From a virus, in the IMG/VR virus record IMGVR_UViG_3300045250_000071: DNA of 64,000 bases; one strand, written 5' to 3'. A program made the translations under genes and the position numbers. Below, piece after piece: positions 1-48,958 of the stretch; position 1 is the first letter of the stretch, and each line of letters opens with the position of its first letter. The notes beneath the pieces are model-generated. The model ran no database searches. It worked only from the letters and a program-made list of their open reading frames with translations, and was not told the origin of the DNA.

Positions 1-353
1 GGGAATGGCACCCCGGGCACCGGGAACTGGCTCAGCCCGGCGGCGTAGCCGTTCGTGACGGCCATCGTGCGTGGCAGCGCGAGGACTCCGGCGTTGTTGG
101 TAAATCCGTTTTGCACGGGCGCCGCTGCAAGACCCGTCGAGAACACGAACGACCGGCGTGCGATGAAGAAGCCGATGGGAAGCTGCACGACGTTGTCACT
201 CGTCGCGGCAGACCCGTCGAGAGATTGCGACTCGACGAGGACGATGTCGCCGTCGCGCTTCACGCGCAGACTCGCTGCCACCCACCCGTTCAGGAGCTGT
301 GTCGTGAGATCGATCCACACGGTGGCGCGCTGGCGCCGTAGCGACCAAGGCAT
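1..353 (-). CDS. RBP-head-like cassette C6 (3' end cut by window edge; complete copy at 40947..41315)
   Basis: Starts MPWSLRR at TGATG overlap at 353; identical to 40947..41315. Confidence 0.75.
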   Translation of the reverse strand, partial: MPWSLRRQRATVWIDLTTQLLNGWVAASLRVKRDGDIVLVESQSLDGSAATSDNVVQLPIGFFIARRSFVFSTGLAAAPVQNGFTNNAGVLALPRTMAVTNGYAAGLSQFPVPGVPF

Positions 354-739
354 CAGACCTTCACCCCCGGGTAGCTCGTCGGAAAATCACCCGAGACCGG
401 TACCGACACCGTGAAATGCAGCACGTCGTTTGGCGCAGCGAAATAGAGCGGCACCCAGCCGGCCGGCGAGACCGCGAGCCGGCGTAACTGGCCGGCGCTG
501 TTGAACAGGTTTGTCCAGCAGCTGCGCCCGCTCGGGCGGAGCCCACTCGGGAGCGTGCCAGACGGCAGCAGGTCAAACGTTCCCGAAACCTCGCCGAGGC
601 GCAGCGCGTCGGCGAGCAGCCACAGTGTTTCGCCGGTGCGTTGCACGTAGAGGTTGCCGGAGGTGACGGGTGCGCCGATGAGCGACGTGACGTTCCACAG
701 CCCGGAGTCGCGCACGGAACGGGTTTTCAGAGCCCACAT
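353..739 (-). CDS. Small receptor-binding-head-like protein, cassette C5
   Basis: MWALK start; DSGLWNVT...QRTGETL...LPSGLRP...FPTSYPG pattern of tail-fibre C-terminal head domains. Confidence 0.75.
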   Translation of the reverse strand: MWALKTRSVRDSGLWNVTSLIGAPVTSGNLYVQRTGETLWLLADALRLGEVSGTFDLLPSGTLPSGLRPSGRSCWTNLFNSAGQLRRLAVSPAGWVPLYFAAPNDVLHFTVSVPVSGDFPTSYPGVKV

Positions 740-741
740 AG

Positions 742-1110
742 CTATGCCTCCGGGATCGGGTTGTCGCAGCGGTATGTTCCGGTGCCGCGGATCGCGAGGC
801 CTGCCTTCACCTGGTAGAGGTAGACAGCGCCAGTGCGGTCGATGCGGATCGACCCGCCAGGGTCGGCCGCGAGCCGTCGGCCGAGACCGATGTCGGTGTT
901 CGAGTAATGCGGCCGGAATTGTTCGTCGAGGATGACGCCGAGGTTGAGGAACGGCGCATCATCGGCGAAGACGAGCCCGTCAGCCATGAGCGTGACGGTG
1001 CGCCCCTCGCGCGCGACGCGCATCACCCCGCTCTCGGGGAGGACTGCGAATCGGCTGGTGATGTCGATCCAGTCGGTCAGCTGCCGGTGTCGGCGTTGCC
1101 AAAGCGCCAT
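742..1110 (-). CDS. Small receptor-binding-head-like protein, cassette C4
   Basis: True start MALWQRR at TGATG overlap (1110), not the ORF-track start at 1347; TDWIDIT...REGRTVTL...LDEQFRP. Confidence 0.75.
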   Translation of the reverse strand: MALWQRRHRQLTDWIDITSRFAVLPESGVMRVAREGRTVTLMADGLVFADDAPFLNLGVILDEQFRPHYSNTDIGLGRRLAADPGGSIRIDRTGAVYLYQVKAGLAIRGTGTYRCDNPIPEA

Positions 1111-1502
1111 CAGATCCCAACCCCCGGGTATGCCGTCGGGAACGCGTCGCGCGCCCGAATCTGGTGGTTGATGTTGATGAGCGTCGGCGCCCCGTTCGCG
1201 GCGACGAGCTGCAGGCGGTTGTTGTAGTGGTTGATGCGGTACATCGAGATGGGTCCACCACCCGCGCTGGACGCGAGCCCCGACCCGTACTCGTAGCGGC
1301 CACCGGAGGTGATGATTCCGGGCCGGAACCCCGAGGGCAGGAGCCACGGGATATCGCTGGTTGCGGCGGCGCCGTCGAGCTGGCCGCGGAACCAGACGAC
1401 GTCACCGACGCGTTCGACGGTGAGCACACCGGCCCAGCCGTCGCGGAGCTCGGCAGAGATGTCGCGCAGGCCGGTTCGGCGTGGTTTCAGGCTCCAGGCC
1501 AT
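1110..1502 (-). CDS. Small receptor-binding-head-like protein, cassette C3
   Basis: MAWSLK start at TAATG; TGLRDIS...ERVGDVV...LPSGFRP...FPTAYPG. Confidence 0.75.
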   Translation of the reverse strand: MAWSLKPRRTGLRDISAELRDGWAGVLTVERVGDVVWFRGQLDGAAATSDIPWLLPSGFRPGIITSGGRYEYGSGLASSAGGGPISMYRINHYNNRLQLVAANGAPTLININHQIRARDAFPTAYPGVGI

Positions 1503-1834
1503 TACGCGACCGCCTTTGTGCTGTAGGTGAGGCGTCCGAAAATCGGGCCGATGGTTAGCCCGTAGGCCTGGAGGTTGCCGGTGTTGGTGATCTGGACGCG
1601 GTTCGTGACGCCCGGCAGGTACTCGGCCTCGGTGAACGCTGGGCGGCCGAGTTCTGACGGGATGACGGCGATATTGCCGCCGGTTGTGTCGCCGAGCACG
1701 AGCACGTCGAACGCGATCACACGATCGCCGTCAGCCTTCTGCTGAAACAGAAGCCGCCCCGAGGTAACGGGGCGGCTGATGAGGTGCGTGATGTCGGTCC
1801 AGTCCGACGTCGCGGAGCGCTTGAGCCAGGGCAT
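1502..1834 (-). CDS. Small receptor-binding-head-like protein, cassette C2
   Basis: MPWLKR start at TGATG; SDWTDIT...PVTSGRLL...IPSELGRP. Confidence 0.75.
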   Translation of the reverse strand: MPWLKRSATSDWTDITHLISRPVTSGRLLFQQKADGDRVIAFDVLVLGDTTGGNIAVIPSELGRPAFTEAEYLPGVTNRVQITNTGNLQAYGLTIGPIFGRLTYSTKAVA

Positions 1835-2208
1835 CAGCCGCTCACCCCCATGAGGTTCGATGGGAACGCGCCGGCAGCCTCGACCTCGGCGTAGAACGAG
1901 ATCGGCTGGCCAGCGACGACCGAGTAGATGTTCGAGTAGCCGGCCGGTGTGACCGAGAACGTGCCGCCGGCGGTGTAGCCGGTGGAGGGGTACCAGGTCT
2001 CGCGCAGTCGCCAGCGTGGCCGGTAGCCGTCGGCGAGGCGCGGGAGCGGCACGTTGGTGCCGGCCTCAGCGAAGACGAGGTCGTCACCAACGACGATGAG
2101 CCGCGAGCGTTTCCGCTGCACGAGGAGCCGGCCCGACGTGACCGCTGCGGTGATGAGGCCGGTGATGTCGCGGACACCTGTGTCTGGATCACGTCGCATC
2201 CATGCCAT
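1834..2208 (-). CDS. Small receptor-binding-head-like protein, cassette C1
   Basis: MAWMRR start with GGAGG SD; DTGVRDIT...VTSGRLLVQR...LADGYRP...FPSNLMG. Confidence 0.75.
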   Translation of the reverse strand: MAWMRRDPDTGVRDITGLITAAVTSGRLLVQRKRSRLIVVGDDLVFAEAGTNVPLPRLADGYRPRWRLRETWYPSTGYTAGGTFSVTPAGYSNIYSVVAGQPISFYAEVEAAGAFPSNLMGVSG

Positions 2209-2210
2209 GG

Positions 2211-2594
2211 TTAGGCCTCCATTCGGTAGATGTCGCCGGTGAGCACGTCGTAGTGCCAGAACCCGACCGGTGCGCCGCCGACTGGTGCGCCCTCGCCGAA
2301 TTTCGCGTTGGCGAGCGATGTGCCGCCCTGCGACGCCTCGACGCTGGTGAGCCGCGTCTCTGCCGACGACATACGTCCCTCGAGCGGGGCCAGGTCGTCG
2401 GCGTCGAGCGTGGCGTCGAGTCGGCCCTCAGCTGCGGTGAGTCGGCCCTCGGCAGCGGTGACTCGCCCCTCGAGCGGGGCGAGGTCTTCCGCAACAAGCG
2501 CGGTGTCCAGTCGGCCCTCGGCGGCGGTCAGCCGGTATTCGACTGCGTTGATGTCCTCGGCGACGAGTACTGCGAAGGTTTGCAGGTCACCCAT
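2211..2594 (-). CDS. Short coiled-coil tail-fibre stem / putative adaptor
   Basis: Start MGDLQTF at 2594 overlapping upstream stop; repeated RLTAAEG heptads; C-terminus GEGAPVGGAPVGFWHYDVLTGDIYRMEA. Confidence 0.7.
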   Translation of the reverse strand: MGDLQTFAVLVAEDINAVEYRLTAAEGRLDTALVAEDLAPLEGRVTAAEGRLTAAEGRLDATLDADDLAPLEGRMSSAETRLTSVEASQGGTSLANAKFGEGAPVGGAPVGFWHYDVLTGDIYRMEA

Positions 2595-3144
2595 TTCGCG
2601 CTCCTGTGTAGGCGTTGAGGATGGCGGTCTCGTCGAGTGCGCTCTCGGGCTGGACCCACGCGATGCCGCCGTTTTCGTAGCCGAGCACGGCGCCGGCCCA
2701 GCCGCCCGCCGGCACGTTGACGGTGACGATCGTGACGCCCTCCCCCGGCGTCGGTGGTGCGGCGTGAACGAGGTCGAGCGGCGCCTCCGAGGTGTGCGCC
2801 GCGGTGACCTCGAACCGGAACTCGGGGATCGCGGCGGCGACGAGGTTGAACCGCGCACGCCAAACGCCGGTGGTGAGCCACACACCCGGGGGCCGGGGAG
2901 TGTCGTCCACGTTGAGGAGGCATATGTTCCCGTTCGAGTCGAAACCGAACGGGATCTCTTCCTTCACGACGAGCGCGGAGTATTGCTCTGTGCGGTCGAG
3001 CGTGGCGACCGGCGTGAACACTCCAGTGCCGCGCGGCGCGAGCGTGTCGGGGTAGTCGTCCTCGTCATCGCCGTCGGCGACGGAACGGATGACGCGTCCG
3101 ACGACGAGGCCGTACGCGAGGTCAGTAGGGGCAGGAATCGACAC
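2587..3144 (-). CDS. Minor tail / fibre-anchoring protein
   Basis: N-terminus YGLVVGRVIRSVADGDDEDDYPD resembles actinophage post-lysis minor tail proteins; heads the fibre operon. Confidence 0.6.
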   Translation of the reverse strand: MSIPAPTDLAYGLVVGRVIRSVADGDDEDDYPDTLAPRGTGVFTPVATLDRTEQYSALVVKEEIPFGFDSNGNICLLNVDDTPRPPGVWLTTGVWRARFNLVAAAIPEFRFEVTAAHTSEAPLDLVHAAPPTPGEGVTIVTVNVPAGGWAGAVLGYENGGIAWVQPESALDETAILNAYTGARNG

Positions 3145-36928: not shown

Positions 36929-37360
36929 ATGAATACCGCATCCCCAACCACGACCGAGGCCGTCGACGTCAACATGGTCGTCGCATCCAACGTTCGTGCC
37001 GAATTCTCGCGAACGCGCTGGTCGGGCCGGAAAGCTGCGGCGGCGCTCGGCCTGTCTCCCATGTACGTCAATCGTCGCCTCGCCGGCGAGACCCCGCTCG
37101 ATCCGTCGGACCTCGTGATGTTCGCAGAGCTTATCGGCGTGCCCGTCGCGAAGTTCTTCGCAGACACAACAAAGCCCCTCACCGAAACCGATGAGGGGCG
37201 TGCTGCGCGCCTGGAGGGACTCGAACCCCCAACCTTCTGTACGGGGGTCTACGACCAGCACGCCGACGTCGTTAGCATCGATGACTTCCGCGCGAGAATG
37301 CGGAACTCCGCAGAATTCGCGCCGGAATTCGATACGCCGAGTGCATGCGTGGTCATTTAA
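36929..37360 (+). CDS. Immunity repressor (Xre HTH) containing attP
   Basis: NVRAE...WSGRKAAAALGLS..YVNRRLAGETP; divergent from Cro; upstream of integrase. Confidence 0.85.
   Translation: MNTASPTTTEAVDVNMVVASNVRAEFSRTRWSGRKAAAALGLSPMYVNRRLAGETPLDPSDLVMFAELIGVPVAKFFADTTKPLTETDEGRAARLEGLEPPTFCTGVYDQHADVVSIDDFRARMRNSAEFAPEFDTPSACVVI
37174..37199 (-). terminator. Terminator for the tRNA gene rebuilt on integration
   Basis: GCCCCTCATCG-GTTT-CGGTGAGGGGC then TTTGTTGT, immediately 3' of the tRNA fragment. Confidence 0.65.
37204..37239 (-). other. attP: attP common core = 3' half of a tRNA (Arg-like)
   Basis: Minus strand CAGAAGGTTGGGGGTTCGAGTCCCTCCAGGCGCGCA: T-arm GGTTCGAGTCC plus acceptor stem 3' strand; 5' half of tRNA absent. 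Confidence 0.85.
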
Positions 37361-37382
37361 ACACGATCTAAATATATTGGTT

Positions 37383-38216
37383 ATGGCCCTGAAACCGACA
37401 CCTGTACCGGACGAGTGGGAGACTCCCCTCGCCGACTACTTCATCGAGCAGACTGCTGCCGGCACGCCAGCGACCACACAGTACACGCGGCGTCAGCATC
37501 TCTCGAATCTGGCGCGCGGGCTCGGCGGCAGCCCGTGGACGGTGACGCCCGAGCAGCTGCTCGGGTGGTTCGCCGAGCGCGATTGGCTGCAGGAGACTCG
37601 CCGGAGCCGGCGCACGACTTTCCGGCATTTCTGGGCGTGGGGCGTTGCGACCGGCCGCACCGAGCAGAACACCGCCGCGATCCTGCCGGTCGTGAAGGCG
37701 AGCGCGCCGAAGCCGCGCCCCATCCCCGCGCCGTACCTGCACGAGGGCATGGAAGCCGCCGACCAGCGAACCGAACTCATTCTGCGCCTCGCGGCCGAAG
37801 CCGGCATGCGCCGCGGCGAGATCGCGCAAGCCCACTCACGTGACCTGCTGCCCGACCTCGACGGCTACTCGATCATCGCGCACGGCAAAGGCGGCAAAGA
37901 CCGCGTCATCCCGCTGAACACCGACCTCGCGGCCGCGCTGCTCAAACTCGGAAGCGGCTACTTCTTCCCCGGCCGAGTGAGTGGCCACCTGTCGGCCAAG
38001 TACGTCGGGAAACTCGCGACCCGCGTGCTGCCCGGTGAATGGACTCTGCACACTGGCCGGCACCGATTCGCCGTGCTCTCACACCGCGAATCGAAGGACC
38101 TCCTCATCGTGCAAGACCTGCTCGGCCACGCCTCCCCCGCCACCACGCGCGCGTACGTCGGCCCCGACCCGCAGCGAGCAAGACTCGTCGTCCAAGCGCT
38201 TCCCCGCGCCGCATAG
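37383..38216 (+). CDS. int: Tyrosine integrase (short, 277 aa, no arm-binding domain)
   Basis: GMRRGE, GKGGK, HTGRH, LLGH, TRAY catalytic motifs; ends ...PRAA. Confidence 0.92.
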   Translation: MALKPTPVPDEWETPLADYFIEQTAAGTPATTQYTRRQHLSNLARGLGGSPWTVTPEQLLGWFAERDWLQETRRSRRTTFRHFWAWGVATGRTEQNTAAILPVVKASAPKPRPIPAPYLHEGMEAADQRTELILRLAAEAGMRRGEIAQAHSRDLLPDLDGYSIIAHGKGGKDRVIPLNTDLAAALLKLGSGYFFPGRVSGHLSAKYVGKLATRVLPGEWTLHTGRHRFAVLSHRESKDLLIVQDLLGHASPATTRAYVGPDPQRARLVVQALPRAA

Positions 38217-38250: not shown

Positions 38251-38820
38251 ATGACCACTAGACCCCTCATGGCCGTCGCCGCACTCCTCACGCTCGGACT
38301 CACCGGATGCGCGAGCCAGACCGACGACGCACCCACCGAACCCGACGCCGGCCAAGAGCAAGCCACTGACGTCGCCACCAGCGAGCGCGGGCACCAGCTC
38401 GTGGAACTCGGCGAACCCGTCACCCTGTACGACGGCGACGCCGAGGTCGGTGAACTCACGATCGAAGACATGGCGGAAGTCGACACGTCCGACTCGGCGT
38501 TCGCGTTCGACCAGGACCGCACGTACTTCCTCGTGACGGTGAGCGCGTCCGCGACGCCCGACCTCGCCGAACCGCTGCAATTCGTGTGGCTCGGCGTCGA
38601 CTCCGAGGGCTACAACATCAGCGACGGGATCGAGCACTCGATCGCCGACATCAGCGACGAAGAGGGGTTCGAGGGCACGATCTCGGGCGGCGAGAAGACC
38701 CGCGGCGTGCTCCTCGTGTCGTTCCCTGACGAGCACGGCTCGATCATCCTCAAAGTCTCCGGCGGCTCCACGGGCATGGTGGCAATGGAGGGCTCGACCG
38801 GATACGAGCTCGAGTTCTGA
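38251..38820 (+). CDS. Lipoprotein (possible superinfection exclusion)
   Basis: Signal peptide with lipobox LTGC, acidic Ig-like body; co-oriented with repressor/int. Confidence 0.75.
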   Translation: MTTRPLMAVAALLTLGLTGCASQTDDAPTEPDAGQEQATDVATSERGHQLVELGEPVTLYDGDAEVGELTIEDMAEVDTSDSAFAFDQDRTYFLVTVSASATPDLAEPLQFVWLGVDSEGYNISDGIEHSIADISDEEGFEGTISGGEKTRGVLLVSFPDEHGSIILKVSGGSTGMVAMEGSTGYELEF

Positions 38821-38993
38821 TGAGTCTCGACGAAGCTGTCGATGTGCTCGTCGCGCACCTCGAGCGCGTGCCCGAGGATGACCGACTCGAAGCCGTGAAC
38901 CGGTGCGTCGGAGTGCTGCAGCCGCTCGAGGTTCCCGACCTCGCAGAACAACGTGAGGCTCGTGCCGATTTCCCCGACGACATATTGGACTAG
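38820..38993 (+). CDS. Hypothetical 57-aa acidic protein (not in ORF track)
   Basis: TGATG-coupled to lipoprotein; MSLDEAVDVLVAHLERV...DDILD. Confidence 0.45.
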   Translation: MSLDEAVDVLVAHLERVPEDDRLEAVNRCVGVLQPLEVPDLAEQREARADFPDDILD

Positions 38994-39127
38994 CAATTCA
39001 TGACAGGGTGCCCGTCTGAACCGCTGCCGCGCGGCTGGTACCTCGCGCTCGGCGCGCGCGTTCTCGACCGCGAGCCCGACGCGATGCTCGAGTGGGGAGA
39101 CTTCCACTAGCCCGGAAAACGAAAATC

Positions 39128-39165
39128 GCCCCTCCCTCCACGCCCGTAGGCATAGAGGGAGGGGC
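39128..39165 (-). terminator. Intrinsic terminator ending the late operon
   Basis: Minus strand GCCCCTCCCTCTATGCC-TACG-GGCGTGGAGGGAGGGGC (UNCG loop) then ATTTTCGTTTT; at convergence of operons. Confidence 0.75.
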
Positions 39166-39179
39166 ATTCGTTGTGCAGT

Positions 39180-39425
39180 TCAGACGACGCGAGAAGCTCG
39201 CGCGGCGTCGCGTCGCTCGAGCGCACGCTTCACCGTCATCGGCGCGTACTGCCAGGCAGCCGGCAGCTCGATGAGCGCGCCGAGCACGGCGTAGTAGCGG
39301 GTCGCTGTCCAGCCGAACGCGCGCCGGATTGCGTCGACCTTGCGGCCACCGTGCAGCGGCCACTCGGCCTCGAAATCGAGGAGCTGCCGGTCAACGTCAT
39401 CGAGCTCGATCGCCATGACGCTCAC
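39180..39425 (-). CDS. DUF3263-family protein
   Basis: LLDFE..W...G.K..AIR..FG..ATRYY.VL..LI..P.A....P..V.R. Confidence 0.8.
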   Translation of the reverse strand: MSVMAIELDDVDRQLLDFEAEWPLHGGRKVDAIRRAFGWTATRYYAVLGALIELPAAWQYAPMTVKRALERRDAARASRVV

Positions 39426-39862
39426 TCAGCCTCGACGAGTTCCCAGCCGCCCGGGTACTCGCTCGGGCGGGAGCCGTGGACGTCGGCGAGGGCACGCCAG
39501 ACTCGGCCGGCGTCGCGGGCGAGGTCGCCGGCCTGGAACGGGCCCGGCTGCCAGAACGGCACAAGCGGGCCGGTGGCGGGCTCCCAGCCGTCGCCCGGGG
39601 GCTCGGTCGTGACACCGAGCTGAGTGGCGTCGTAGTGGGCGCCAGCGTGCTCGACGCGCCACCCGCGGGGGTACGCGCCGATGATGCCGACCGGTGCCTG
39701 CCAGGCGGCGCCGTTCTCGCGCCCTTCGGCGACGAGGTAGTCGAGCAGCATCGCGTCGGTTCGGCGCGCCGCGTCCGCGAGTTTCTGTCGGCGCTCGAGT
39801 TCGGCCTGCGCGGATGCGGCCGCGTCGGCGAGCTCGCTGTCGCTCATCGTGTCGATGTCCAA
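39422..39862 (-). CDS. Coiled-coil plus tandem CBM5/12-like carbohydrate-binding domains
   Basis: TTG start after GGAGG; AWQAP.G...AYP.G..V.H.G..Y...EP...GW and WQPG..Q.GD.....GRVW....PS..PGGW. Confidence 0.65.
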   Translation of the reverse strand: MDIDTMSDSELADAAASAQAELERRQKLADAARRTDAMLLDYLVAEGRENGAAWQAPVGIIGAYPRGWRVEHAGAHYDATQLGVTTEPPGDGWEPATGPLVPFWQPGPFQAGDLARDAGRVWRALADVHGSRPSEYPGGWELVEAE

Positions 39863-39864
39863 TG

Positions 39865-40263
39865 TCAGACCTCCAGGTGCTTCGGGAACGACGCAAGGGT
39901 GGTGAATTCGAAGCCGCCGCGTAGCGTCTCCGGTCGGGTGATCGCCAGCAATCCTTTGACGACCTGCTGGTTCCAGTAGATGGTTTTGCCGTAGTAGAGC
40001 GAGCACAGCGAAGGGTGGAGCGATGTCGCGGAGTCGTTCACCCAGTGGTATTGGTGCGGCAGCGGCGCCCCGCACGCCCAATCTGGGAGGTGACCGAGGT
40101 TGGCGAGCCCTGGCTTCGTCGTGTCGAGCCGCAGCCCCGACAGGTCGACAATCACGGTGTGGTCAACCCGCAGCACGCGGAAAAACTGGATCGGGTCGTT
40201 CGGGCCCTGCGGTGCGAGGCCGGCAGCGGACGTATGGACGACTTGCCAATCGGTACGCGTCAC
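39865..40263 (-). CDS. RBP-head-like cassette C9 (lacks N-terminal hook)
   Basis: TDWQ...RVDHTVIV.LSGL...LPDWA...FPKHL; GTGA-coupled. Confidence 0.65.
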   Translation of the reverse strand: MTRTDWQVVHTSAAGLAPQGPNDPIQFFRVLRVDHTVIVDLSGLRLDTTKPGLANLGHLPDWACGAPLPHQYHWVNDSATSLHPSLCSLYYGKTIYWNQQVVKGLLAITRPETLRGGFEFTTLASFPKHLEV

Positions 40264-40328
40264 AGCTTCACCCCCGCGATCGGCCCGGTTTCGTATGTGC
40301 CGGGCGTGATTCTGCGTTGCCAGACCAT
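40260..40328 (-). CDS. 22-aa mini-ORF (hook peptide plus cassette C-terminus only)
   Basis: MVWQRRITPGTYETGPIAGVKL; TAATG start, GTGA stop overlap, GGGGGTG SD upstream. Confidence 0.5.
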   Translation of the reverse strand: MVWQRRITPGTYETGPIAGVKL

Positions 40329-40612
40329 TAAATCGTCACCCCCATTAGGTCGCGCCAAGGACGCCAAACGCCTGACAGGCAGCTCCGCTTCACGACCGCG
40401 TATCCGCCGTCCCAGGGAATGAATACCTGCAACGGCTGGCCATCACGCCACTGCAACACCTCGAGGAACCCCGGCACCTCGTCATACGGGTAGCCGTTCG
40501 CTGCGGTCGCGTACGCACCAAACTGCACCACGTACCGGTTGGGCGACGTGATGGTGTCGAGGTGCTCGTTCGTGAGTACTACCGCCGCTCGTGGACGTTT
40601 TGCCCAGACCAT
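40328..40612 (-). CDS. Cassette C8, pyocin-knob-like tail-fibre domain
   Basis: MVWAKR start at TGATG; LDTITSP..Y.......ANGYP....GFLEV.......LQ.F........KR....VWRPW. Confidence 0.7.
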   Translation of the reverse strand: MVWAKRPRAAVVLTNEHLDTITSPNRYVVQFGAYATAANGYPYDEVPGFLEVLQWRDGQPLQVFIPWDGGYAVVKRSCLSGVWRPWRDLMGVTI

Positions 40613-40950
40613 CAGTTCCCTGCTCTCCATGTGACGGTGCCGGCGTAGGTTGCGCCGGCGGTGGCTCCGAGGATGCGGAGGTTGCCAGCGAACACCGACA
40701 CGAGGCGGACCTCACCGGATGCGGTGACGAGAACTCCCTGGCGACCGTTCATGCCGACGGGGTCGGGCACGGGCAGGTAGTTCGATGTGAGGCTTGCGAT
40801 GTTGACGTTGCCCGCGTTCCCAACCGTGAGCCCGCTCGTGAGGAACGTGACGGTGTCGTCGTCGCGGCGAATCGCTGCTGATCCAGTCACTCCCGCGAGG
40901 AGGGTGAGGTTCTCCCACGTACCGCGGCCGCGGCGCTTTACCCAGCTCAT
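40612..40950 (-). CDS. Small receptor-binding-head-like protein, cassette C7
   Basis: MSWVKRR start at ATGA; GTWENLT...RRDDDTVT...L.SNYLP. Confidence 0.75.
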   Translation of the reverse strand: MSWVKRRGRGTWENLTLLAGVTGSAAIRRDDDTVTFLTSGLTVGNAGNVNIASLTSNYLPVPDPVGMNGRQGVLVTASGEVRLVSVFAGNLRILGATAGATYAGTVTWRAGN

Positions 40951-41315
40951 GATGCTCCCTTCGGGAATGGCACCCCGGGCACCGGGAACTGGCTCAGCCC
41001 GGCGGCGTAGCCGTTCGTGACGGCCATCGTGCGTGGCAGCGCGAGGACTCCGGCGTTGTTGGTAAATCCGTTTTGCACGGGCGCCGCTGCAAGACCCGTC
41101 GAGAACACGAACGACCGGCGTGCGATGAAGAAGCCGATGGGAAGCTGCACGACGTTGTCACTCGTCGCGGCAGACCCGTCGAGAGATTGCGACTCGACGA
41201 GGACGATGTCGCCGTCGCGCTTCACGCGCAGACTCGCTGCCACCCACCCGTTCAGGAGCTGTGTCGTGAGATCGATCCACACGGTGGCGCGCTGGCGCCG
41301 TAGCGACCAAGGCAT
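40947..41315 (-). CDS. Small receptor-binding-head-like protein, cassette C6
   Basis: MPWSLRR; WIDLTTQLLNGW...KRDGDIV...LPIGF. Confidence 0.75.
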   Translation of the reverse strand: MPWSLRRQRATVWIDLTTQLLNGWVAASLRVKRDGDIVLVESQSLDGSAATSDNVVQLPIGFFIARRSFVFSTGLAAAPVQNGFTNNAGVLALPRTMAVTNGYAAGLSQFPVPGVPFPKGAS

Positions 41316-41701
41316 CAGACCTTCACCCCCGGGTAGCTCGTCGGAAAATCACCCGAGACCGGTACCGACACCGTGAAATGCAGCACGTCGTTTGGCGCAG
41401 CGAAATAGAGCGGCACCCAGCCGGCCGGCGAGACCGCGAGCCGGCGTAACTGGCCGGCGCTGTTGAACAGGTTTGTCCAGCAGCTGCGCCCGCTCGGGCG
41501 GAGCCCACTCGGGAGCGTGCCAGACGGCAGCAGGTCAAACGTTCCCGAAACCTCGCCGAGGCGCAGCGCGTCGGCGAGCAGCCACAGTGTTTCGCCGGTG
41601 CGTTGCACGTAGAGGTTGCCGGAGGTGACGGGTGCGCCGATGAGCGACGTGACGTTCCACAGCCCGGAGTCGCGCACGGAACGGGTTTTCAGAGCCCACA
41701 T
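41315..41701 (-). CDS. Cassette C5 (copy 2)
   Basis: Identical to 353..739. Confidence 0.75.
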   Translation of the reverse strand: MWALKTRSVRDSGLWNVTSLIGAPVTSGNLYVQRTGETLWLLADALRLGEVSGTFDLLPSGTLPSGLRPSGRSCWTNLFNSAGQLRRLAVSPAGWVPLYFAAPNDVLHFTVSVPVSGDFPTSYPGVKV

Positions 41702-41703
41702 AG

Positions 41704-42072
41704 CTATGCCTCCGGGATCGGGTTGTCGCAGCGGTATGTTCCGGTGCCGCGGATCGCGAGGCCTGCCTTCACCTGGTAGAGGTAGACAGCGCCAGTGCGG
41801 TCGATGCGGATCGACCCGCCAGGGTCGGCCGCGAGCCGTCGGCCGAGACCGATGTCGGTGTTCGAGTAATGCGGCCGGAATTGTTCGTCGAGGATGACGC
41901 CGAGGTTGAGGAACGGCGCATCATCGGCGAAGACGAGCCCGTCAGCCATGAGCGTGACGGTGCGCCCCTCGCGCGCGACGCGCATCACCCCGCTCTCGGG
42001 GAGGACTGCGAATCGGCTGGTGATGTCGATCCAGTCGGTCAGCTGCCGGTGTCGGCGTTGCCAAAGCGCCAT
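41704..42072 (-). CDS. Cassette C4 (copy 2)
   Basis: Identical to 742..1110. Confidence 0.75.
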   Translation of the reverse strand: MALWQRRHRQLTDWIDITSRFAVLPESGVMRVAREGRTVTLMADGLVFADDAPFLNLGVILDEQFRPHYSNTDIGLGRRLAADPGGSIRIDRTGAVYLYQVKAGLAIRGTGTYRCDNPIPEA

Positions 42073-42464
42073 CAGATCCCAACCCCCGGGTATGCCGTCG
42101 GGAACGCGTCGCGCGCCCGAATCTGGTGGTTGATGTTGATGAGCGTCGGCGCCCCGTTCGCGGCGACGAGCTGCAGGCGGTTGTTGTAGTGGTTGATGCG
42201 GTACATCGAGATGGGTCCACCACCCGCGCTGGACGCGAGCCCCGACCCGTACTCGTAGCGGCCACCGGAGGTGATGATTCCGGGCCGGAACCCCGAGGGC
42301 AGGAGCCACGGGATATCGCTGGTTGCGGCGGCGCCGTCGAGCTGGCCGCGGAACCAGACGACGTCACCGACGCGTTCGACGGTGAGCACACCGGCCCAGC
42401 CGTCGCGGAGCTCGGCAGAGATGTCGCGCAGGCCGGTTCGGCGTGGTTTCAGGCTCCAGGCCAT
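42072..42464 (-). CDS. Cassette C3 (copy 2)
   Basis: Identical to 1110..1502. Confidence 0.75.
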   Translation of the reverse strand: MAWSLKPRRTGLRDISAELRDGWAGVLTVERVGDVVWFRGQLDGAAATSDIPWLLPSGFRPGIITSGGRYEYGSGLASSAGGGPISMYRINHYNNRLQLVAANGAPTLININHQIRARDAFPTAYPGVGI

Positions 42465-42796
42465 TACGCGACCGCCTTTGTGCTGTAGGTGAGGCGTCCG
42501 AAAATCGGGCCGATGGTTAGCCCGTAGGCCTGGAGGTTGCCGGTGTTGGTGATCTGGACGCGGTTCGTGACGCCCGGCAGGTACTCGGCCTCGGTGAACG
42601 CTGGGCGGCCGAGTTCTGACGGGATGACGGCGATATTGCCGCCGGTTGTGTCGCCGAGCACGAGCACGTCGAACGCGATCACACGATCGCCGTCAGCCTT
42701 CTGCTGAAACAGAAGCCGCCCCGAGGTAACGGGGCGGCTGATGAGGTGCGTGATGTCGGTCCAGTCCGACGTCGCGGAGCGCTTGAGCCAGGGCAT
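42464..42796 (-). CDS. Cassette C2 (copy 2)
   Basis: Identical to 1502..1834. Confidence 0.75.
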   Translation of the reverse strand: MPWLKRSATSDWTDITHLISRPVTSGRLLFQQKADGDRVIAFDVLVLGDTTGGNIAVIPSELGRPAFTEAEYLPGVTNRVQITNTGNLQAYGLTIGPIFGRLTYSTKAVA

Positions 42797-43170
42797 CAGC
42801 CGCTCACCCCCATGAGGTTCGATGGGAACGCGCCGGCAGCCTCGACCTCGGCGTAGAACGAGATCGGCTGGCCAGCGACGACCGAGTAGATGTTCGAGTA
42901 GCCGGCCGGTGTGACCGAGAACGTGCCGCCGGCGGTGTAGCCGGTGGAGGGGTACCAGGTCTCGCGCAGTCGCCAGCGTGGCCGGTAGCCGTCGGCGAGG
43001 CGCGGGAGCGGCACGTTGGTGCCGGCCTCAGCGAAGACGAGGTCGTCACCAACGACGATGAGCCGCGAGCGTTTCCGCTGCACGAGGAGCCGGCCCGACG
43101 TGACCGCTGCGGTGATGAGGCCGGTGATGTCGCGGACACCTGTGTCTGGATCACGTCGCATCCATGCCAT
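42796..43170 (-). CDS. Cassette C1 (copy 2)
   Basis: Identical to 1834..2208. Confidence 0.75.
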   Translation of the reverse strand: MAWMRRDPDTGVRDITGLITAAVTSGRLLVQRKRSRLIVVGDDLVFAEAGTNVPLPRLADGYRPRWRLRETWYPSTGYTAGGTFSVTPAGYSNIYSVVAGQPISFYAEVEAAGAFPSNLMGVSG

Positions 43171-43172
43171 GG

Positions 43173-43556
43173 TTAGGCCTCCATTCGGTAGATGTCGCCG
43201 GTGAGCACGTCGTAGTGCCAGAACCCGACCGGTGCGCCGCCGACTGGTGCGCCCTCGCCGAATTTCGCGTTGGCGAGCGATGTGCCGCCCTGCGACGCCT
43301 CGACGCTGGTGAGCCGCGTCTCTGCCGACGACATACGTCCCTCGAGCGGGGCCAGGTCGTCGGCGTCGAGCGTGGCGTCGAGTCGGCCCTCAGCTGCGGT
43401 GAGTCGGCCCTCGGCAGCGGTGACTCGCCCCTCGAGCGGGGCGAGGTCTTCCGCAACAAGCGCGGTGTCCAGTCGGCCCTCGGCGGCGGTCAGCCGGTAT
43501 TCGACTGCGTTGATGTCCTCGGCGACGAGTACTGCGAAGGTTTGCAGGTCACCCAT
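43173..43556 (-). CDS. Coiled-coil fibre stem / adaptor (copy 2)
   Basis: Identical to 2211..2594. Confidence 0.7.
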   Translation of the reverse strand: MGDLQTFAVLVAEDINAVEYRLTAAEGRLDTALVAEDLAPLEGRVTAAEGRLTAAEGRLDATLDADDLAPLEGRMSSAETRLTSVEASQGGTSLANAKFGEGAPVGGAPVGFWHYDVLTGDIYRMEA

Positions 43557-44106
43557 TTCGCGCTCCTGTGTAGGCGTTGAGGATGGCGGTCTCGTCGAGT
43601 GCGCTCTCGGGCTGGACCCACGCGATGCCGCCGTTTTCGTAGCCGAGCACGGCGCCGGCCCAGCCGCCCGCCGGCACGTTGACGGTGACGATCGTGACGC
43701 CCTCCCCCGGCGTCGGTGGTGCGGCGTGAACGAGGTCGAGCGGCGCCTCCGAGGTGTGCGCCGCGGTGACCTCGAACCGGAACTCGGGGATCGCGGCGGC
43801 GACGAGGTTGAACCGCGCACGCCAAACGCCGGTGGTGAGCCACACACCCGGGGGCCGGGGAGTGTCGTCCACGTTGAGGAGGCATATGTTCCCGTTCGAG
43901 TCGAAACCGAACGGGATCTCTTCCTTCACGACGAGCGCGGAGTATTGCTCTGTGCGGTCGAGCGTGGCGACCGGCGTGAACACTCCAGTGCCGCGCGGCG
44001 CGAGCGTGTCGGGGTAGTCGTCCTCGTCATCGCCGTCGGCGACGGAACGGATGACGCGTCCGACGACGAGGCCGTACGCGAGGTCAGTAGGGGCAGGAAT
44101 CGACAC
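43549..44106 (-). CDS. Minor tail / fibre anchor (copy 2)
   Basis: Identical to 2587..3144. Confidence 0.6.
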   Translation of the reverse strand: MSIPAPTDLAYGLVVGRVIRSVADGDDEDDYPDTLAPRGTGVFTPVATLDRTEQYSALVVKEEIPFGFDSNGNICLLNVDDTPRPPGVWLTTGVWRARFNLVAAAIPEFRFEVTAAHTSEAPLDLVHAAPPTPGEGVTIVTVNVPAGGWAGAVLGYENGGIAWVQPESALDETAILNAYTGARNG

Positions 44107-44121
44107 CGGTCGCCTCCGTCG

Positions 44122-44436
44122 CTATTTGTCGTTGCCGATGCGCTGCAGCTGCTCGCTCGCGCCGGTGGGCTTCCACATCGAGGCGTAGCTGCCTTGCGCG
44201 ACGCCGAGCGCGAGAAGGGCGTTCAGGACGCCGACTCCGATGTCGTATGCCTCGCCCGTGGCGAGTGCCGCACCAAGCTCGGTGAGGACACCAGTCGCCA
44301 GCGAGAGCACAGCGAGCAGGATGCCCTTGAACGCGCCCGAGGTGACGCGAGTAGTGACGAGGCCAACGAGTGCCGGCAGGACGACGGCGACGACGAGCGA
44401 GATGACGAGCGACGGTGGCAGGGTGAATTCGATCAT
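44122..44436 (-). CDS. Holin-like protein (copy 2)
   Basis: Identical to 3160..3474. Confidence 0.7.
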   Translation of the reverse strand: MIEFTLPPSLVISLVVAVVLPALVGLVTTRVTSGAFKGILLAVLSLATGVLTELGAALATGEAYDIGVGVLNALLALGVAQGSYASMWKPTGASEQLQRIGNDK

Positions 44437-44723
44437 TTGGAATCTCCTTGAGTTTCGATTGCCCCGGTGCCGCCAATAACTGGGCGCCGCGGGAGTTCGT
44501 CGGTGTCAATGCACGGTGCATTGACGGCAATTCGCCGGAGTTCGTTGTATGCGTCTTCCATTGCGAATAGGTCATTTCGAATCTTTCGCACGAGCCGCCA
44601 CGCCTTCTGCTCGTCGGTATGCTTCTTGCCTCGCCGGTCGAGCAGCTTCTGCACGATGTAGAGGCCGACTCCGCCACTAGAGAAGAGCGCAATCCCAAGC
44701 CCGGTCAGCTGCTCCGGAGTCAT
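44433..44723 (-). CDS. Single-TM protein (copy 2)
   Basis: Identical to 3471..3761. Confidence 0.6.
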   Translation of the reverse strand: MTPEQLTGLGIALFSSGGVGLYIVQKLLDRRGKKHTDEQKAWRLVRKIRNDLFAMEDAYNELRRIAVNAPCIDTDELPRRPVIGGTGAIETQGDSK

Positions 44724-44728
44724 CGGCG

Positions 44729-45151
44729 CTACCCCCGGTCATCGAGAATTGGCGGGCGATAATCCCACCCTCGGATATTGAGGATGCGAGAGAGGAAGAA
44801 CAGCTCGGCAAAAATGAGACTGCACAGCTGCGGAACGCGATTGCCTTCGGCGGTGATGATGAGCCAGACGACTTGCGTGAGATAGATCATCAGGCCGGTC
44901 ATGAGCAGGAGGATCGACGCTCGTTCGGCCCACCACCACCGCGAGTAGACGGTGAGGCAGCCGCCGAGCCCGCCGATGAGCATGATGAGGCCCCACACGA
45001 ACGTCAGCGCGGTGCCGAGTTCGTTCTCGATCGTGCGCGGTGGCACGGTGAGACAAGCGATGCCCATGATGACGGCGACGATGTAGCCGACGAGGCCGAC
45101 GGGTCGGTGCCGGGGCGGGTCGAGGAACACACGGACGAGAAATTGCCGCAT
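44729..45151 (-). CDS. 4-TM membrane protein (copy 2)
   Basis: Identical to 3767..4189. Confidence 0.65.
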   Translation of the reverse strand: MRQFLVRVFLDPPRHRPVGLVGYIVAVIMGIACLTVPPRTIENELGTALTFVWGLIMLIGGLGGCLTVYSRWWWAERASILLLMTGLMIYLTQVVWLIITAEGNRVPQLCSLIFAELFFLSRILNIRGWDYRPPILDDRG

Positions 45152-45160
45152 GATCGGCCC

Positions 45161-45964
45161 CTAGTCGCTCGTGGTGAGTGTGATTTCGAGGCCGGCGAGC
45201 GCGTCCTTGAGCGCTCCGTCGATGCGTTTCAGGACGGCGTCCTGGTCGAGCCCGTTCGCTTTCGCGAGCGTCTCGACGGCGGCTCGCAGGGCCTTGATCT
45301 CGGCCTGGGTGTCGAGGGTGCGACCCATGAGCCCGTTCGTGGAGCGCCGGGCCTGGCGAAGTCGCTCACCTGCCGTCTCGGTGGGAATCTGCCCACCGGT
45401 CGGGAGTTTCTTCCCGCCCTCCATTTCGTAGCGCCAGACGGCCGCGGCCGCGGCCTCGGCGATGCTTGCGATCTCTGCCTTCGTGACCACGTCATCCTCC
45501 TTTGGAGTGGGTTTTGCGGGCGAGGTGCCCGAGGTTTTCGAGACGAGCGAGGGTCGCCCGCCGGCGGAGCGGGTCCAGCCGAGGTACTTGTGCCCCTTGC
45601 GGCGCTGGTAATCGTTGAAATCGACGGTGCCGTAGTTGATCGACCCGCCCCGGTCGAGACGGCGCGACACGGCCTTCGAGTCGCCGGTCATGAAAATGAG
45701 CCCGTTGCCGAGCGACCAGCCGACGTGCCCGTCGGGGTACCACTCCCAGAAGTGCACGGCGCCGCGCGGGGCGGCGTACGGGTCGGTGCCGTCGATGCGG
45801 GAGGCGCGGTAGTCGAGCGTCGCCGAGGAGTAGGAGCGATGTGCCTGGCTGCCGGTGTGCGCCCAGATGCCATACCAAATTAGGCGTTCACATTCCTGAT
45901 TCCAATTGAAATACGGTCGGCCTCGGTTCATTTGATCGATGACTTTATCGACGCTGAAACTCAT
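45161..45964 (-). CDS. Endolysin (copy 2)
   Basis: Identical to 4199..5002. Confidence 0.7.
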   Translation of the reverse strand: MSFSVDKVIDQMNRGRPYFNWNQECERLIWYGIWAHTGSQAHRSYSSATLDYRASRIDGTDPYAAPRGAVHFWEWYPDGHVGWSLGNGLIFMTGDSKAVSRRLDRGGSINYGTVDFNDYQRRKGHKYLGWTRSAGGRPSLVSKTSGTSPAKPTPKEDDVVTKAEIASIAEAAAAAVWRYEMEGGKKLPTGGQIPTETAGERLRQARRSTNGLMGRTLDTQAEIKALRAAVETLAKANGLDQDAVLKRIDGALKDALAGLEITLTTSD

Positions 45965-46027
45965 TGTGATTCCTTTGTGAAACGACGAATGCGCCCAGCT
46001 GGTGGGCGCATTCGTCGTTGCGATCGA

Positions 46028-48958
46028 TTACTTCGTGTAGGTGACGGTGATCTTCGTCGCGCCCTTATCGAAATAGCCGTAGGACGAGAGCGAGCCCGCG
46101 TATTTCGGCGTGACGGTGAGGCCACGTGCCGAGATGATAGCCGCGAAATAGCCCGACGGTACCGTGTAGGTCTTCGTCTGACCGTTTGTGATCGCACCTT
46201 CGTTCGTGTTCGTGAACGACGGCATCGTCGCGGGCAGCCCGTTCGTCGGTGTCACTCCGACGTAGAACGAGATGTTCGTCTTCGAGGAGTAGACCTGCGT
46301 GCACCGAACCGTGATCTTTGCCGACTTGATCGTCGCGCCCTGCAGGTCGGAGTAGAACGCGTCCGGCATCGAGAACACGAGCCGCTCCGACATCGCTGCA
46401 CCGAACGCGGAACCAGCGATGAGGATGCGCGGGTCACCTGCTTGCGAGCCGGAGGCCCGGTAGCCGCGCACGCCGCTGGCGGTGTACGTCTTGGTGTATT
46501 GCTTCTTCGTCGGTGGCGCCGGCGTGGTGTTCGCGGGCGTCGTCGCGGTTGCGACGTCGAATGGGATGTCCGGGCCAGCGTCCTCGATGAGGAAGTAGGT
46601 GCCACTGAGTGCGTCGGTGGTGCCCGACCCTGCGTAGAGCGGTGTCGTGCCCGACTTGACGCGACCCGTGTAGCCGATCTCTGTCTCGCCGTCCGCGTTC
46701 GGGGTGAAATAGGAGCCCGGCACGTAGGCGATGAGCAGCTTTCCTTCGGTATCCGACCCGGTCGCGCCAAAACCTTCGTTGACCACGCTCGTGTTGTTCA
46801 TCGAGACCGTCGACCCCGACGACTTGATGCCGAAGTAGCCGGCGTTGTTGCCGCCGAGCGACAACCGCGCCGTGAACCGGTAGAGCCGGTCGGGCAGCGG
46901 TGAGAACTTGTCTCGAATCAGGATGCGTTCGGTCGTCGAGAGCGTCGTGTTTTCAGAGAGTGTGACGGCCGACATCGGGCCACGAGGGCCCTGGTGGTCG
47001 ATGAACGGAACGCCGCCGACCTCGAGCTCGTCGAAGCTGCCGAACCCGCCCCACACGTCACCGGTCGACTGCATGCCGGCCGTGACTTCACCGTCCTGTG
47101 CGACGGCGATGGAGACGTCGCCGTTCGGGCTGATGACGATGATCGGCTGTCGGTTGGCCCAGTCGTCGACCTGTTGGCCGGGCACGACCGGCGCGTAGAA
47201 GACGAGGCCCTGTTCCGTCCAGCGGGCGTTTTCGCCGAGCTGGAACATTTCGACGCCGAGCTTGCCGGCGGCGAACTCGGAGGTGACGAGCTTGTCGAAG
47301 AACGCTTGCGAGGCGGTGATCTTCTCGGCGGTGACGGAGCCGGTCGCGAGCATGTCGCGCGTGATGATCGACGTCAGCGCTTGGAGCCGGTCGACGACCG
47401 CGAGACGCGCCCACACCTGGTTGATTGCCGCGACGTTGAGGTTCGCGACACCGGTCGAGGTGAGGTTCGTCATCATCGCGTCAACGAAAACACCGACCGC
47501 GGCCGCGACTTCCTGCGCGGCGACGTGGCGAGCCTTGATCGAGCCATCGACGATGAGCTCGCCCTGCGTGCGAGGCCGCAGACGCAGCCCGGCGACCGAG
47601 ATGACCGCTTGCCGTTCCGTGCCGGCGGAGTGGTTGAAATACGTCGTTCCGAGCCGCAGGTGGGTCGTGGTCGAGAGCGGGTTGATGACGATCTGGTACT
47701 TCGTCCACTCGGTTGGCACGGGGTTGACGACGAGCGGGTACGAGCCGGTTGAGACGTTCTCGCTCGTTGCGCCGGGGAGAACGGTGTTGCTGCCGGTGCC
47801 GTGCGCCGCGGCCTGGTTGCGCAGCTCGAATACGATGCGGGAGCCGGGCTTGTCGGCCTTGAGCCACACCTCGAACAGCAGCTGGCCACCGTCGACGGGC
47901 TTGAGGGTGTCGGTGGTGGCCATGCTGCCCATGCCGGCAGCCGTGGTGAACGCGCCGGCCTCGCCGGCGGCGACGTCGGTCGTCTGCCATGTGAGCGAGG
48001 GGTGCGCCGCCCAGCCGCCCTTAGAGCCGAGCTCGCCGGCGCCGTTGTCGATGAGGTTCACGGGCTGCGCGGCGATGACGACGCGTTCGGCGTAGAGCCG
48101 GGTGAGGAACGCGTCGTCGGCGAGCAGCGTCGATATCACTGCGGCCTGGAACTTCGAGGTTCCGGATGCGGTGAGTTTGCCGACGTCGAGGTCGCCGATC
48201 TTGCCGTTCGTGACCGCGAGGTCACCGATCTGCGCGGTGCCGATGGCGGCGTCACCCATCTGTGCGCGCCCGATGGCTTTGTCACCGATGAAGTCTTGGC
48301 CGACCTTGACCTGGGTCCACGTTGTCGCGCCGGTGAGGACGTAGCGCCGCTGCGTAATGCTGCCCGAGCGGACTTCCCACACCGCGCCGAGCGGCTTACC
48401 GATCGCGTCGGCCGTGGTCGGGTTCGCCGTGGCAACGGTGTAGCGGCCGTCAGCGGTCGACGCGCGATCCGAAGCGTCGTTCGCCTTGTTGAGTGCCTCG
48501 AGAGCACTCGCCCCGGCGGCGTCAGCGTCGTCCTTCGCGGTATTGGCGGTGTTCGTTGCGGTCTGCGCGGCGTTCCATGCGTTCGTCGCGGCGGTGGCTG
48601 CGGCAGTGATGTCGGTGTCGAGGTCGGTGAGTTCCTGCTCCGCCGCGTCGAGCCGCTCCTGCGCCGCGGCGATCGCGGTCTCGTGTGCCTCGAATTGCTC
48701 AGTGAAGTCGCCGGTGGATGTCTCGAGCGCCTCCTCAGCGTCGGTGAGTCGCTGCCGGGCGGCGTCGAGTTCCTCGTCGAGCGTGTCGAGGTCCTCGAGG
48801 AGGTTGCGGGATGGGATATCGGAGATGCCCTCGGGCGCGTCGTGCGGGCTCTGCACCTCGAGCGACGTCGTCGCGCGGCCGAGACCCTGCAGGCTCGAGG
48901 CCTGCACGCCGGAGAGTATCGACGCGAGCGTCGGACGCACACGGTATTTCCGCACCAC
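46028..48958 (-). CDS. Large minor tail protein / fibre (copy 2)
   Basis: Identical to 5066..7996. Confidence 0.8.
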   Translation of the reverse strand: MVRKYRVRPTLASILSGVQASSLQGLGRATTSLEVQSPHDAPEGISDIPSRNLLEDLDTLDEELDAARQRLTDAEEALETSTGDFTEQFEAHETAIAAAQERLDAAEQELTDLDTDITAAATAATNAWNAAQTATNTANTAKDDADAAGASALEALNKANDASDRASTADGRYTVATANPTTADAIGKPLGAVWEVRSGSITQRRYVLTGATTWTQVKVGQDFIGDKAIGRAQMGDAAIGTAQIGDLAVTNGKIGDLDVGKLTASGTSKFQAAVISTLLADDAFLTRLYAERVVIAAQPVNLIDNGAGELGSKGGWAAHPSLTWQTTDVAAGEAGAFTTAAGMGSMATTDTLKPVDGGQLLFEVWLKADKPGSRIVFELRNQAAAHGTGSNTVLPGATSENVSTGSYPLVVNPVPTEWTKYQIVINPLSTTTHLRLGTTYFNHSAGTERQAVISVAGLRLRPRTQGELIVDGSIKARHVAAQEVAAAVGVFVDAMMTNLTSTGVANLNVAAINQVWARLAVVDRLQALTSIITRDMLATGSVTAEKITASQAFFDKLVTSEFAAGKLGVEMFQLGENARWTEQGLVFYAPVVPGQQVDDWANRQPIIVISPNGDVSIAVAQDGEVTAGMQSTGDVWGGFGSFDELEVGGVPFIDHQGPRGPMSAVTLSENTTLSTTERILIRDKFSPLPDRLYRFTARLSLGGNNAGYFGIKSSGSTVSMNNTSVVNEGFGATGSDTEGKLLIAYVPGSYFTPNADGETEIGYTGRVKSGTTPLYAGSGTTDALSGTYFLIEDAGPDIPFDVATATTPANTTPAPPTKKQYTKTYTASGVRGYRASGSQAGDPRILIAGSAFGAAMSERLVFSMPDAFYSDLQGATIKSAKITVRCTQVYSSKTNISFYVGVTPTNGLPATMPSFTNTNEGAITNGQTKTYTVPSGYFAAIISARGLTVTPKYAGSLSSYGYFDKGATKITVTYTK

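Follow-up and report, generated by a model that had tools for sequence, protein, structure and literature searches.

Phages known to diversify their receptor-binding proteins (RBPs) mostly do so by altering DNA (inversion, retrohoming or tract slippage), or they encode several complete fibres. Here we analyze a locus with another layout, located at positions 39865 to 44106 of the 64,000-nucleotide viral stretch recorded as IMGVR_UViG_3300045250_000071 in IMG/VR, the whole of which is called the window below. The locus is an array on the minus strand consisting of an anchor-like gene, a fibre stem that ends without a head, nine stand-alone head genes (cassettes c1 to c9) and a mini open reading frame (mini-ORF) of 22 amino acids. 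No description of a headless stem with an array of heads sharing an N-terminal tag was found in the open-access literature, as far as listings and the beginnings of abstracts go, and we regard the array as a new variation on RBP diversification, which would be categorically new if the docking of heads on the stem proposed below is confirmed.

The described systems closest to this array are compared here on the basis of parts of the cited reports. In the Rin shufflon of Bifidobacterium prophages, a constant RBP N-terminus is accompanied by several very divergent C-terminal heads of 95-100 amino acids, most of them of the TP901-1 type, and inversion at rix sites of 11 bp, with an invertase adjacent, joins one head to the constant part (PMC6109161). 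Rin resembles the window locus in combining a constant part with divergent small heads to the same apparent end in a temperate phage of an actinobacterium (in the window a probable assignment, see below); it differs, as do Min, Cin and Gin, in that the cassettes here are complete co-oriented genes, none fused to the stem, and that no adjacent recombinase or common crossover word was found. In T2/T6-type phages, gp38 on gp37 is one separate adhesin per genome, about 260 amino acids long and with glycine-rich motifs, whose conserved N-terminal part docks on the fibre tip while the rest sets specificity, tip and attachment subtypes being matched (PMC3157838). Here too a small tip is encoded separately after the fibre, with an N-terminal attachment part proposed from the conserved tag and the fused relatives, but in comparison with gp38 as it is described there are 6-9 heads of 91-145 amino acids with at least two folds, and one short tag, about five residues long, by which a split domain is likely completed. 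The phiKZ protein gp131 and its tandem paralogues gp132-135, with similar N-termini, co-assemble at the fibre base (PMC13250141), but these have a propeller fold and are proposed to form a hetero-hexamer of fixed make-up, whereas here a headless stem is followed by a row of heads that varies. RBP1-4 of Fletchervirus, as summarised in PMC8713573, have phase-variable poly-G tracts, and as in our proposal several RBPs per genome lead to phenotypically diverse progeny; there, however, full RBPs are switched by tract slippage, whereas no run longer than six was found in six of the present arrays. Tailocins with up to three fibre genes are a further analogue (PMC6629978).

The stem gene (43173..43556, 127 amino acids) encodes a fibre-type N-terminus, a coiled coil and a C-terminal half-neck, G-x-G-x-P..APVG..D..TGDxYxM(E), followed by a stop, and eight of the nine cassettes in the window begin with a tag, M-x(0-2)-W followed by K or R, across different folds. 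The tagged cassettes are c1 (124 amino acids, 42796..43170), c2 (110, 42464..42796), c3 (130, 42072..42464), c4 (122, 41704..42072), c5 (128, 41315..41701), c6 (122, 40947..41315), c7 (112, 40612..40950) and c8 (94, 40328..40612), while c9 (132, 39865..40263) is an untagged head. Pairwise identity among the nine is 16-36% (36 pairs). The tag, a pattern defined after the cassettes had been seen, is present in 34 of 38 non-redundant cassettes from the window and its relatives (of 54 cassettes, redundancy worth ten was not counted, with identical copies in L006-L009 and L011 left out and six L005 cassettes more than 95% identical to those of L002 dropped), compared with 10 of 308 other ATG-started ORFs of the window phage. 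Of the four cassettes without it, three belong to the c9 family and stand at the ends of arrays. The tag sits on RBP heads, on the knobs of three arrays, and on a single H-lectin-like cassette whose Pfam match (E 0.2) is below the cut-off. The original prediction of nine interchangeable tips missed both this common N-terminal Trp tag and the half-neck of the stem; since c9 is untagged, eight tips at most could be used by the proposed tag route.

All five aligned stems end in the same 32-residue motif and then a stop, whatever their N-terminus. The stem C-terminus resembles a neck of four strands from which one is missing. In five fused relatives a neck G-x-G-x-P..G..D..W..W..GDT is found directly before the head within one ORF, and the head profile aligns to fused relatives from its column 7 on (98.7%). 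An AlphaFold2 model of a fused relative places strands at residues 10-13, 28-31, 38-43 and 52-58, the last one starting at a Trp just before the head, with predicted local distance difference test (pLDDT) values of 74-85 over residues 11-60. Across the split, 5-6 residues separate the last aromatic residue of the stem from the tag Trp, a spacing that fits the 6-10 residues of fused necks. Two kinds of stem N-terminus occur, each also on a complete fused fibre: that of the L003 stem is 66% identical over 41 amino acids to the fused fibre of L097 (E 2.6e-14), and the window stem has a weak match to the fused fibre of L106 (E 0.007).

We find it reasonably probable that heads expressed together dock on the stem by contributing their N-terminal Trp strand to it, and that mixed-tip virions are the result. 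The neck of an ancestral fibre would have been divided at its last loop, with virion attachment and three neck strands left to the stem and the fourth, Trp-bearing strand supplied by each cassette; stem end and tag together would correspond to the split neck of fused fibres. All cassettes would be translated from the late transcript. The array genes are linked by TGATG, TAATG, ATGA or GTGA overlaps or by 2-nt gaps, and 10 of 11 array starts have a purine-rich Shine-Dalgarno (SD)-like word 4-12 nt away; the stop-start overlaps and SD-like words suggest that all cassettes are translated, so that stems could get different heads within one cell. Mixed homotrimers or heterotrimers of heads would then load onto stem trimers, the heads would bind different cell-wall glycans, and one unchanged genome would build particles with varied tips and no DNA rearrangement. 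Over evolution the repertoire could be refreshed by recombination at similar junction sequences, with whole cassettes gained and swapped. More tentatively, at somewhat less than even chances, we put forward that the array is a protein-level host-range diversifier in which the fibre neck is split in two and a five-residue Trp tag snaps any domain onto one stem by strand complementation, with combinatorial tips in each burst and cassettes traded at junctions between phages like integron cassettes.

A number of observations weigh against this docking proposal. The untagged c9 and the mini-ORF fall outside it. Besides c9, its relatives ending two other arrays lack the tag; the family is tagged in some relatives, and altogether this most conserved family is untagged in three of six arrays and in many homologues, so that it has been kept without the proposed plug. 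Possibly c9 joins mixed trimers via head-head contacts, or it may act off the virion. A single-strand plug may also be too small to hold a tip, though three per trimer add up. With regard to the neck, the model of the fused relative is poor overall (mean pLDDT 57), and fold searches with it brought no clear structural match (Foldseek E 0.36 and VIA Z 4.3 at best). The alignment of stem end to neck is weak (hhalign probability 16.9%, E 0.0015, 19 columns), a hidden Markov model (HMM) of the stem end gave E values of 2e-4, 8e-4, 0.015 and 0.02 on 4 of 95 longer proteins with the best reversed control at 0.17, and stem-end matches in the Atlas protein search were all under 0.9. The G-x-G-x-P neck is a minority form among longer head proteins, present in 6 of the 95, and 7 of the 95 have a Trp 4-8 residues before DTGW. 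Finally, fold prediction covers c5, the other seven head-type cassettes being assigned by profile or alignment.

The AlphaFold2 model of c5 (pLDDT 92) has a predicted lactococcal-type RBP beta-barrel head fold. Foldseek ranks 1-5 are all lactococcal RBPs, and structural comparison gave VIA Z 9.7 (rmsd 3.2 over 107 residues) for TP901-1, 10.1 (rmsd 2.5 over 104) for Listeria PSA gp15, 11.2 for the Pa223 tail needle, and a TM score of 0.77 for Arthrobacter phage minor tail proteins. The model superposes on the lactococcal-type heads of p2, TP901-1, bIL170 and PSA gp15 at VIA Z 9.5-10.1; in those RBPs, as for the R-pyocin knob, the domains in contrast belong to one fibre chain. Cassettes c1, c3, c5 and c6 match the C-terminal approximately 120 positions of PHROG 3971, while c8 matches upstream positions of PHROGs 6614, 26622 and 3971. 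A three-sequence profile of c8 and two relatives matches the R2 pyocin fibre knob (6ct8, E 3.9e-5; 6cl6, 7e-5), and by this profile match c8 is an R-pyocin-knob-type domain. Pfam has no family for any window cassette. Both fold assignments agree with the RBP-head pattern and the pyocin-knob likeness noted originally, and the check for folds unrelated to RBP heads or knobs, carried out on c5 by model and on c8 by profile, did not refute the reading. From residue 10 on, c3 matches the C-terminal heads of proteins of cultured Arthrobacter phages (33 records), and in the one record inspected the match lies within a 277-amino-acid minor tail protein. Corynebacterium phage Darwin, found as a structural match, was discarded as it has a single 130-amino-acid gene after a long gene and no array.

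The layout of a headless stem with cassettes recurs in five array lineages with different content and order. Complete arrays are found in the window (9 cassettes), a Gulosibacter faecalis prophage (L002, 7), the viral contig L005 (8), a Brachybacterium rhamnosum prophage (L003, 7) and the viral contig L010 (6); the genome contig L095 holds five cassettes, the first frameshifted, and the start of a sixth at the contig end, and L078 is a two-gene fragment. At 40% identity the 44 cassettes group into 28 families, and families common to several arrays change position. The family of c1 is also found in L002 and L005, c7 is 71% identical to cassette 2 of L010, and the c9 family, the most conserved one, is found in six of seven arrays or fragments. 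As to the surroundings, it had been noted that the array comes after a lysis cassette and behind the anchor-like gene, which is true of the window, whereas neither is kept in the relatives. Lysin or holin matches lie downstream of the array in L002, L005 and L010, the L003 array directly follows Dit and minor-tail matches, and the gene upstream of the stem differs among arrays, the last approximately 15 residues of the anchor being similar in L002 and L010 as judged by eye.

It is clear from the comparison of L002 and L005 that whole cassettes are exchanged at tag junctions. The two are 92-95% identical on both sides of one exchanged block; within cassette 2 the match is lost after 11 nt, among the codons of the tag, and is regained towards the cassette's end, the block holding one cassette in L002 and two in L005. 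The cassettes are under purifying selection, with dN/dS values of 0.12-0.44 in 20 of 21 diverged pairs and one pair saturated, where the pairs are non-independent and among the window cassettes cover only c1, c5, c7 and c9. The number, order and content of cassettes vary among related phages, as is expected of a library, and the check for an invariant array did not refute the original reading. The system is rare: at the level of the order, 401 genomes were sampled, with only 10 candidates scored in each, and 2 had arrays; in the family of G002 arrays were found in 2 of 68 genomes, and in that of G001 in 1 of 401, together with one differently tagged tandem.

A full HMMER search returned 2,698 proteins, and the best 150 include 55 of at most 145 amino acids. 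Of these 55, 11 are known cassettes or closely similar ones, and among the 44 that remain 36 are tagged and match the head-only profile, in a ranking that favoured tagged proteins through the tag contained in the query profile. The stand-alone heads P0018, P0065, P0105 and P0171, and likewise P0044, P0078 and P0085, have longest contigs of the same size (15,310 and 8,079, respectively), hinting at further arrays. In public annotation the tag is hidden in P0002, P0039, P0059 and P0072, whose called starts lie after it. No loci came from searching viral contigs with single proteins (c5, the anchor, P0076 and P0062), and when c5, an L005 cassette and the stem end were compared with cultured phages by tblastn there was no match either. 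A junction DNA pattern found 36 stretches, with heads only on those from five already known contigs, and a word-index search for longer homologues gave none, though the full HMMER search gave many.

The array shows none of the shufflon features tested and neither of the two tested features of diversity-generating retroelements (DGRs), as had originally been stated for the absence of both systems. No recombinase domain was found by Pfam in the genes flanking the array, and no reverse transcriptase family among the 75 window ORFs scanned, a selection of all ORFs; all cassettes are co-oriented in the window, L002, L003, L005, L010 and L095. A crossover repeat was not found, the longest word in at least 5 of 10 junctions being 6 nt, SD-like and absent from the stem end. 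Self-BLAST detected no template or variable repeats in the cassettes, and the longest exact repeat is 14 nt in the window array and 13-17 nt per array. There is no long poly-G tract, with the longest G run being 5 in five arrays and 6 in one.

Four other explanations have to be weighed against docking. One is that the heads form a fixed hetero-oligomer or chain, in which they are virion parts in set stoichiometry (e.g. three different chains per tip) and not interchangeable; this we judge to be unlikely. RBP heads of the lactococcal fold are trimers, the window has nine cassettes, and the c9 family is last in four of six arrays or fragments and next to last in L010, all of which would suit a fixed structure, but three of the five complete-array counts are not multiples of three. 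That phiKZ builds a candidate hetero-hexamer from paralogues (PMC13250141) lends such a structure a precedent, whereas the 28 families in differing order and the replacement of one cassette by two between the near-identical arrays of L002 and L005 argue against it. It is equally unlikely, in our estimate, that the array is a DNA reservoir where one cassette, the first or best translated, is used at a time and the others are spares brought in by recombination or deletion. Each cassette keeps its own start and overlap, most with an SD-like word as described above, no word above 6 nt is common to five of the ten junctions, the longest exact repeat is 13-17 nt per array, and the contigs of four sequencing runs cross the array unchanged, with the restriction that contigs drop rare variants. 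On the other hand, exchange at junctions does occur, the mini-ORF looks like a deletion remnant, and tags are more alike within than between arrays (p 0.0002, relatedness not controlled), a pattern which homogenising recombination gives as well.

A slightly smaller chance is given to a role away from the virion, with soluble lectin-like heads freed at lysis or made in the lysogen for receptor masking, as decoys or for superinfection block, and with the tag serving another partner. The position of the window block after lysis genes and the fact that the best-conserved head is often untagged would agree with this, but the block of the relatives sits between tail genes or immediately behind them, the stems bear the N-termini of complete fibres, and the cassette N-termini are short and basic, without a hydrophobic signal stretch; no promoter-like site was found in 38800-46200 with a scan consensus that may not fit this host. 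Least of all do we expect translational recoding, in which ribosomes hop or frameshift from the stem end to a cassette start to make covalent stem-head fusions, and which we hold to be very improbable. It draws on an invariant Met two or three residues before the stop in five of five stems and on the G5 runs that precede 5 of the 11 starts in the window array. These G runs, 5-6 at the longest, are however at SD distance, distal cassettes are up to 3 kb away, and with a Met-to-Met join the tag Trp and the stem's last aromatic would be separated by 3 residues, compared with 6-10 in fused necks. The frame relation between stem and first cassette also differs among arrays, with spacings of +2, +3, -4 and +1 after a double stop, and this speaks against a single conserved readthrough.

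If docking of tagged heads on the stem is true, tips would be diversified after translation, giving a testable case of non-genetic bet-hedging in host recognition. The arrays would further provide dozens of natural binders for the poorly known cell-wall receptors of Micrococcales, as well as a tag and socket of minimal size with which domains could be displayed on phage fibres. The culture-collection strains Gulosibacter faecalis ATCC 13722 and Brachybacterium rhamnosum JCM 11650 carry two of the arrays, making the proposal testable.

The genes of the locus were as described in the original prediction with respect to size, orientation and junctions when the ORFs were inspected, and GC content at third codon positions is 0.76-0.86 in the array genes. 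The anchor-like gene (43549..44106, minus strand, 185 amino acids) has database matches to unnamed phage proteins, and Phage_tail_C is found on 35% of one protein cluster that it matches, which we take as a lead only; it is likely the virion-proximal partner of the stem. The mini-ORF (40260..40328, minus strand) has a tag and a cassette-like C-terminus and is likely an internally deleted cassette that still couples translation to c9. At cassette 3' ends in the window, L002 and L003, the codons of the conserved C-terminal Pro/Met-Gly-Val also serve as the SD-like word (GGGGGTG) for the gene that follows. The gene directly after c9 (39422-39868; PHROG 18593), which may be a fibre chaperone, has a 54% identical counterpart behind the Brachybacterium array (L003 10450-10875), and in L098 a short relative of its N-terminus comes after fused fibres. 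A consensus scan found a terminator-like hairpin of 18 pairs (39127..39166, minus strand) two genes further down from the array, likely the end of the late operon.

Half-neck-like motifs were also seen at the end of the gene upstream of the stem or fibre in L003 (6670-7862), L095 (2096-2820) and L097 (4200-5510), where the following gene begins with a peptide containing an aromatic residue; several fibre segments may thus be connected one after another by split necks. In L098 (1-1426, G720:C3) three tandem head genes occur, two with another common N-terminal peptide and one with a whole neck, possibly an independent array with a different tag.

The window consists of one phage genome of 40,962 bp with its first 23,038 bases repeated exactly. 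The same block had been reported as a second copy at 1-3144; with the exact repeat this is therefore an assembly duplicate, and it was rejected as an independent array. It is also partial, stopping inside c6 and thus without c7, c8, the mini-ORF and c9. Judged from Pfam and PHROG matches to terminase, capsid, tape measure, Dit, minor tails, holin, integrase and repressor, the phage is a temperate siphophage, and its host is probably a Micrococcales actinobacterium because the named array relatives are of that group. The stretch is present in sequencing runs labelled "ant metagenome". Contigs from four runs, two of them flagged as potential sources of the window DNA, run through the array without any sequence difference, and none has a joint at a cassette boundary, as far as contigs, which drop rare variants, can show; joints elsewhere in run contigs, with a short side of 21-24 letters, were set aside. 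The stretch is also present in six RNA-labelled runs, which were rejected as evidence for transcription since the two examined span the whole 14 kb in long contigs, like DNA runs.

The only recombinase among the 75 scanned ORFs is the integrase at 37191-38216, adjoining attP. Within 36929-38216 an att core resembling a tRNA 3' end (approximately 37203-37239) lies inside a helix-turn-helix repressor ORF, and the contigs of four runs break there; the short integrase beside attP ends in Ala-Ala. This arrangement resembles integration-dependent immunity systems. A 39-bp near-palindrome is located at 45981-46019, between a 976-amino-acid tail gene and the lysin.

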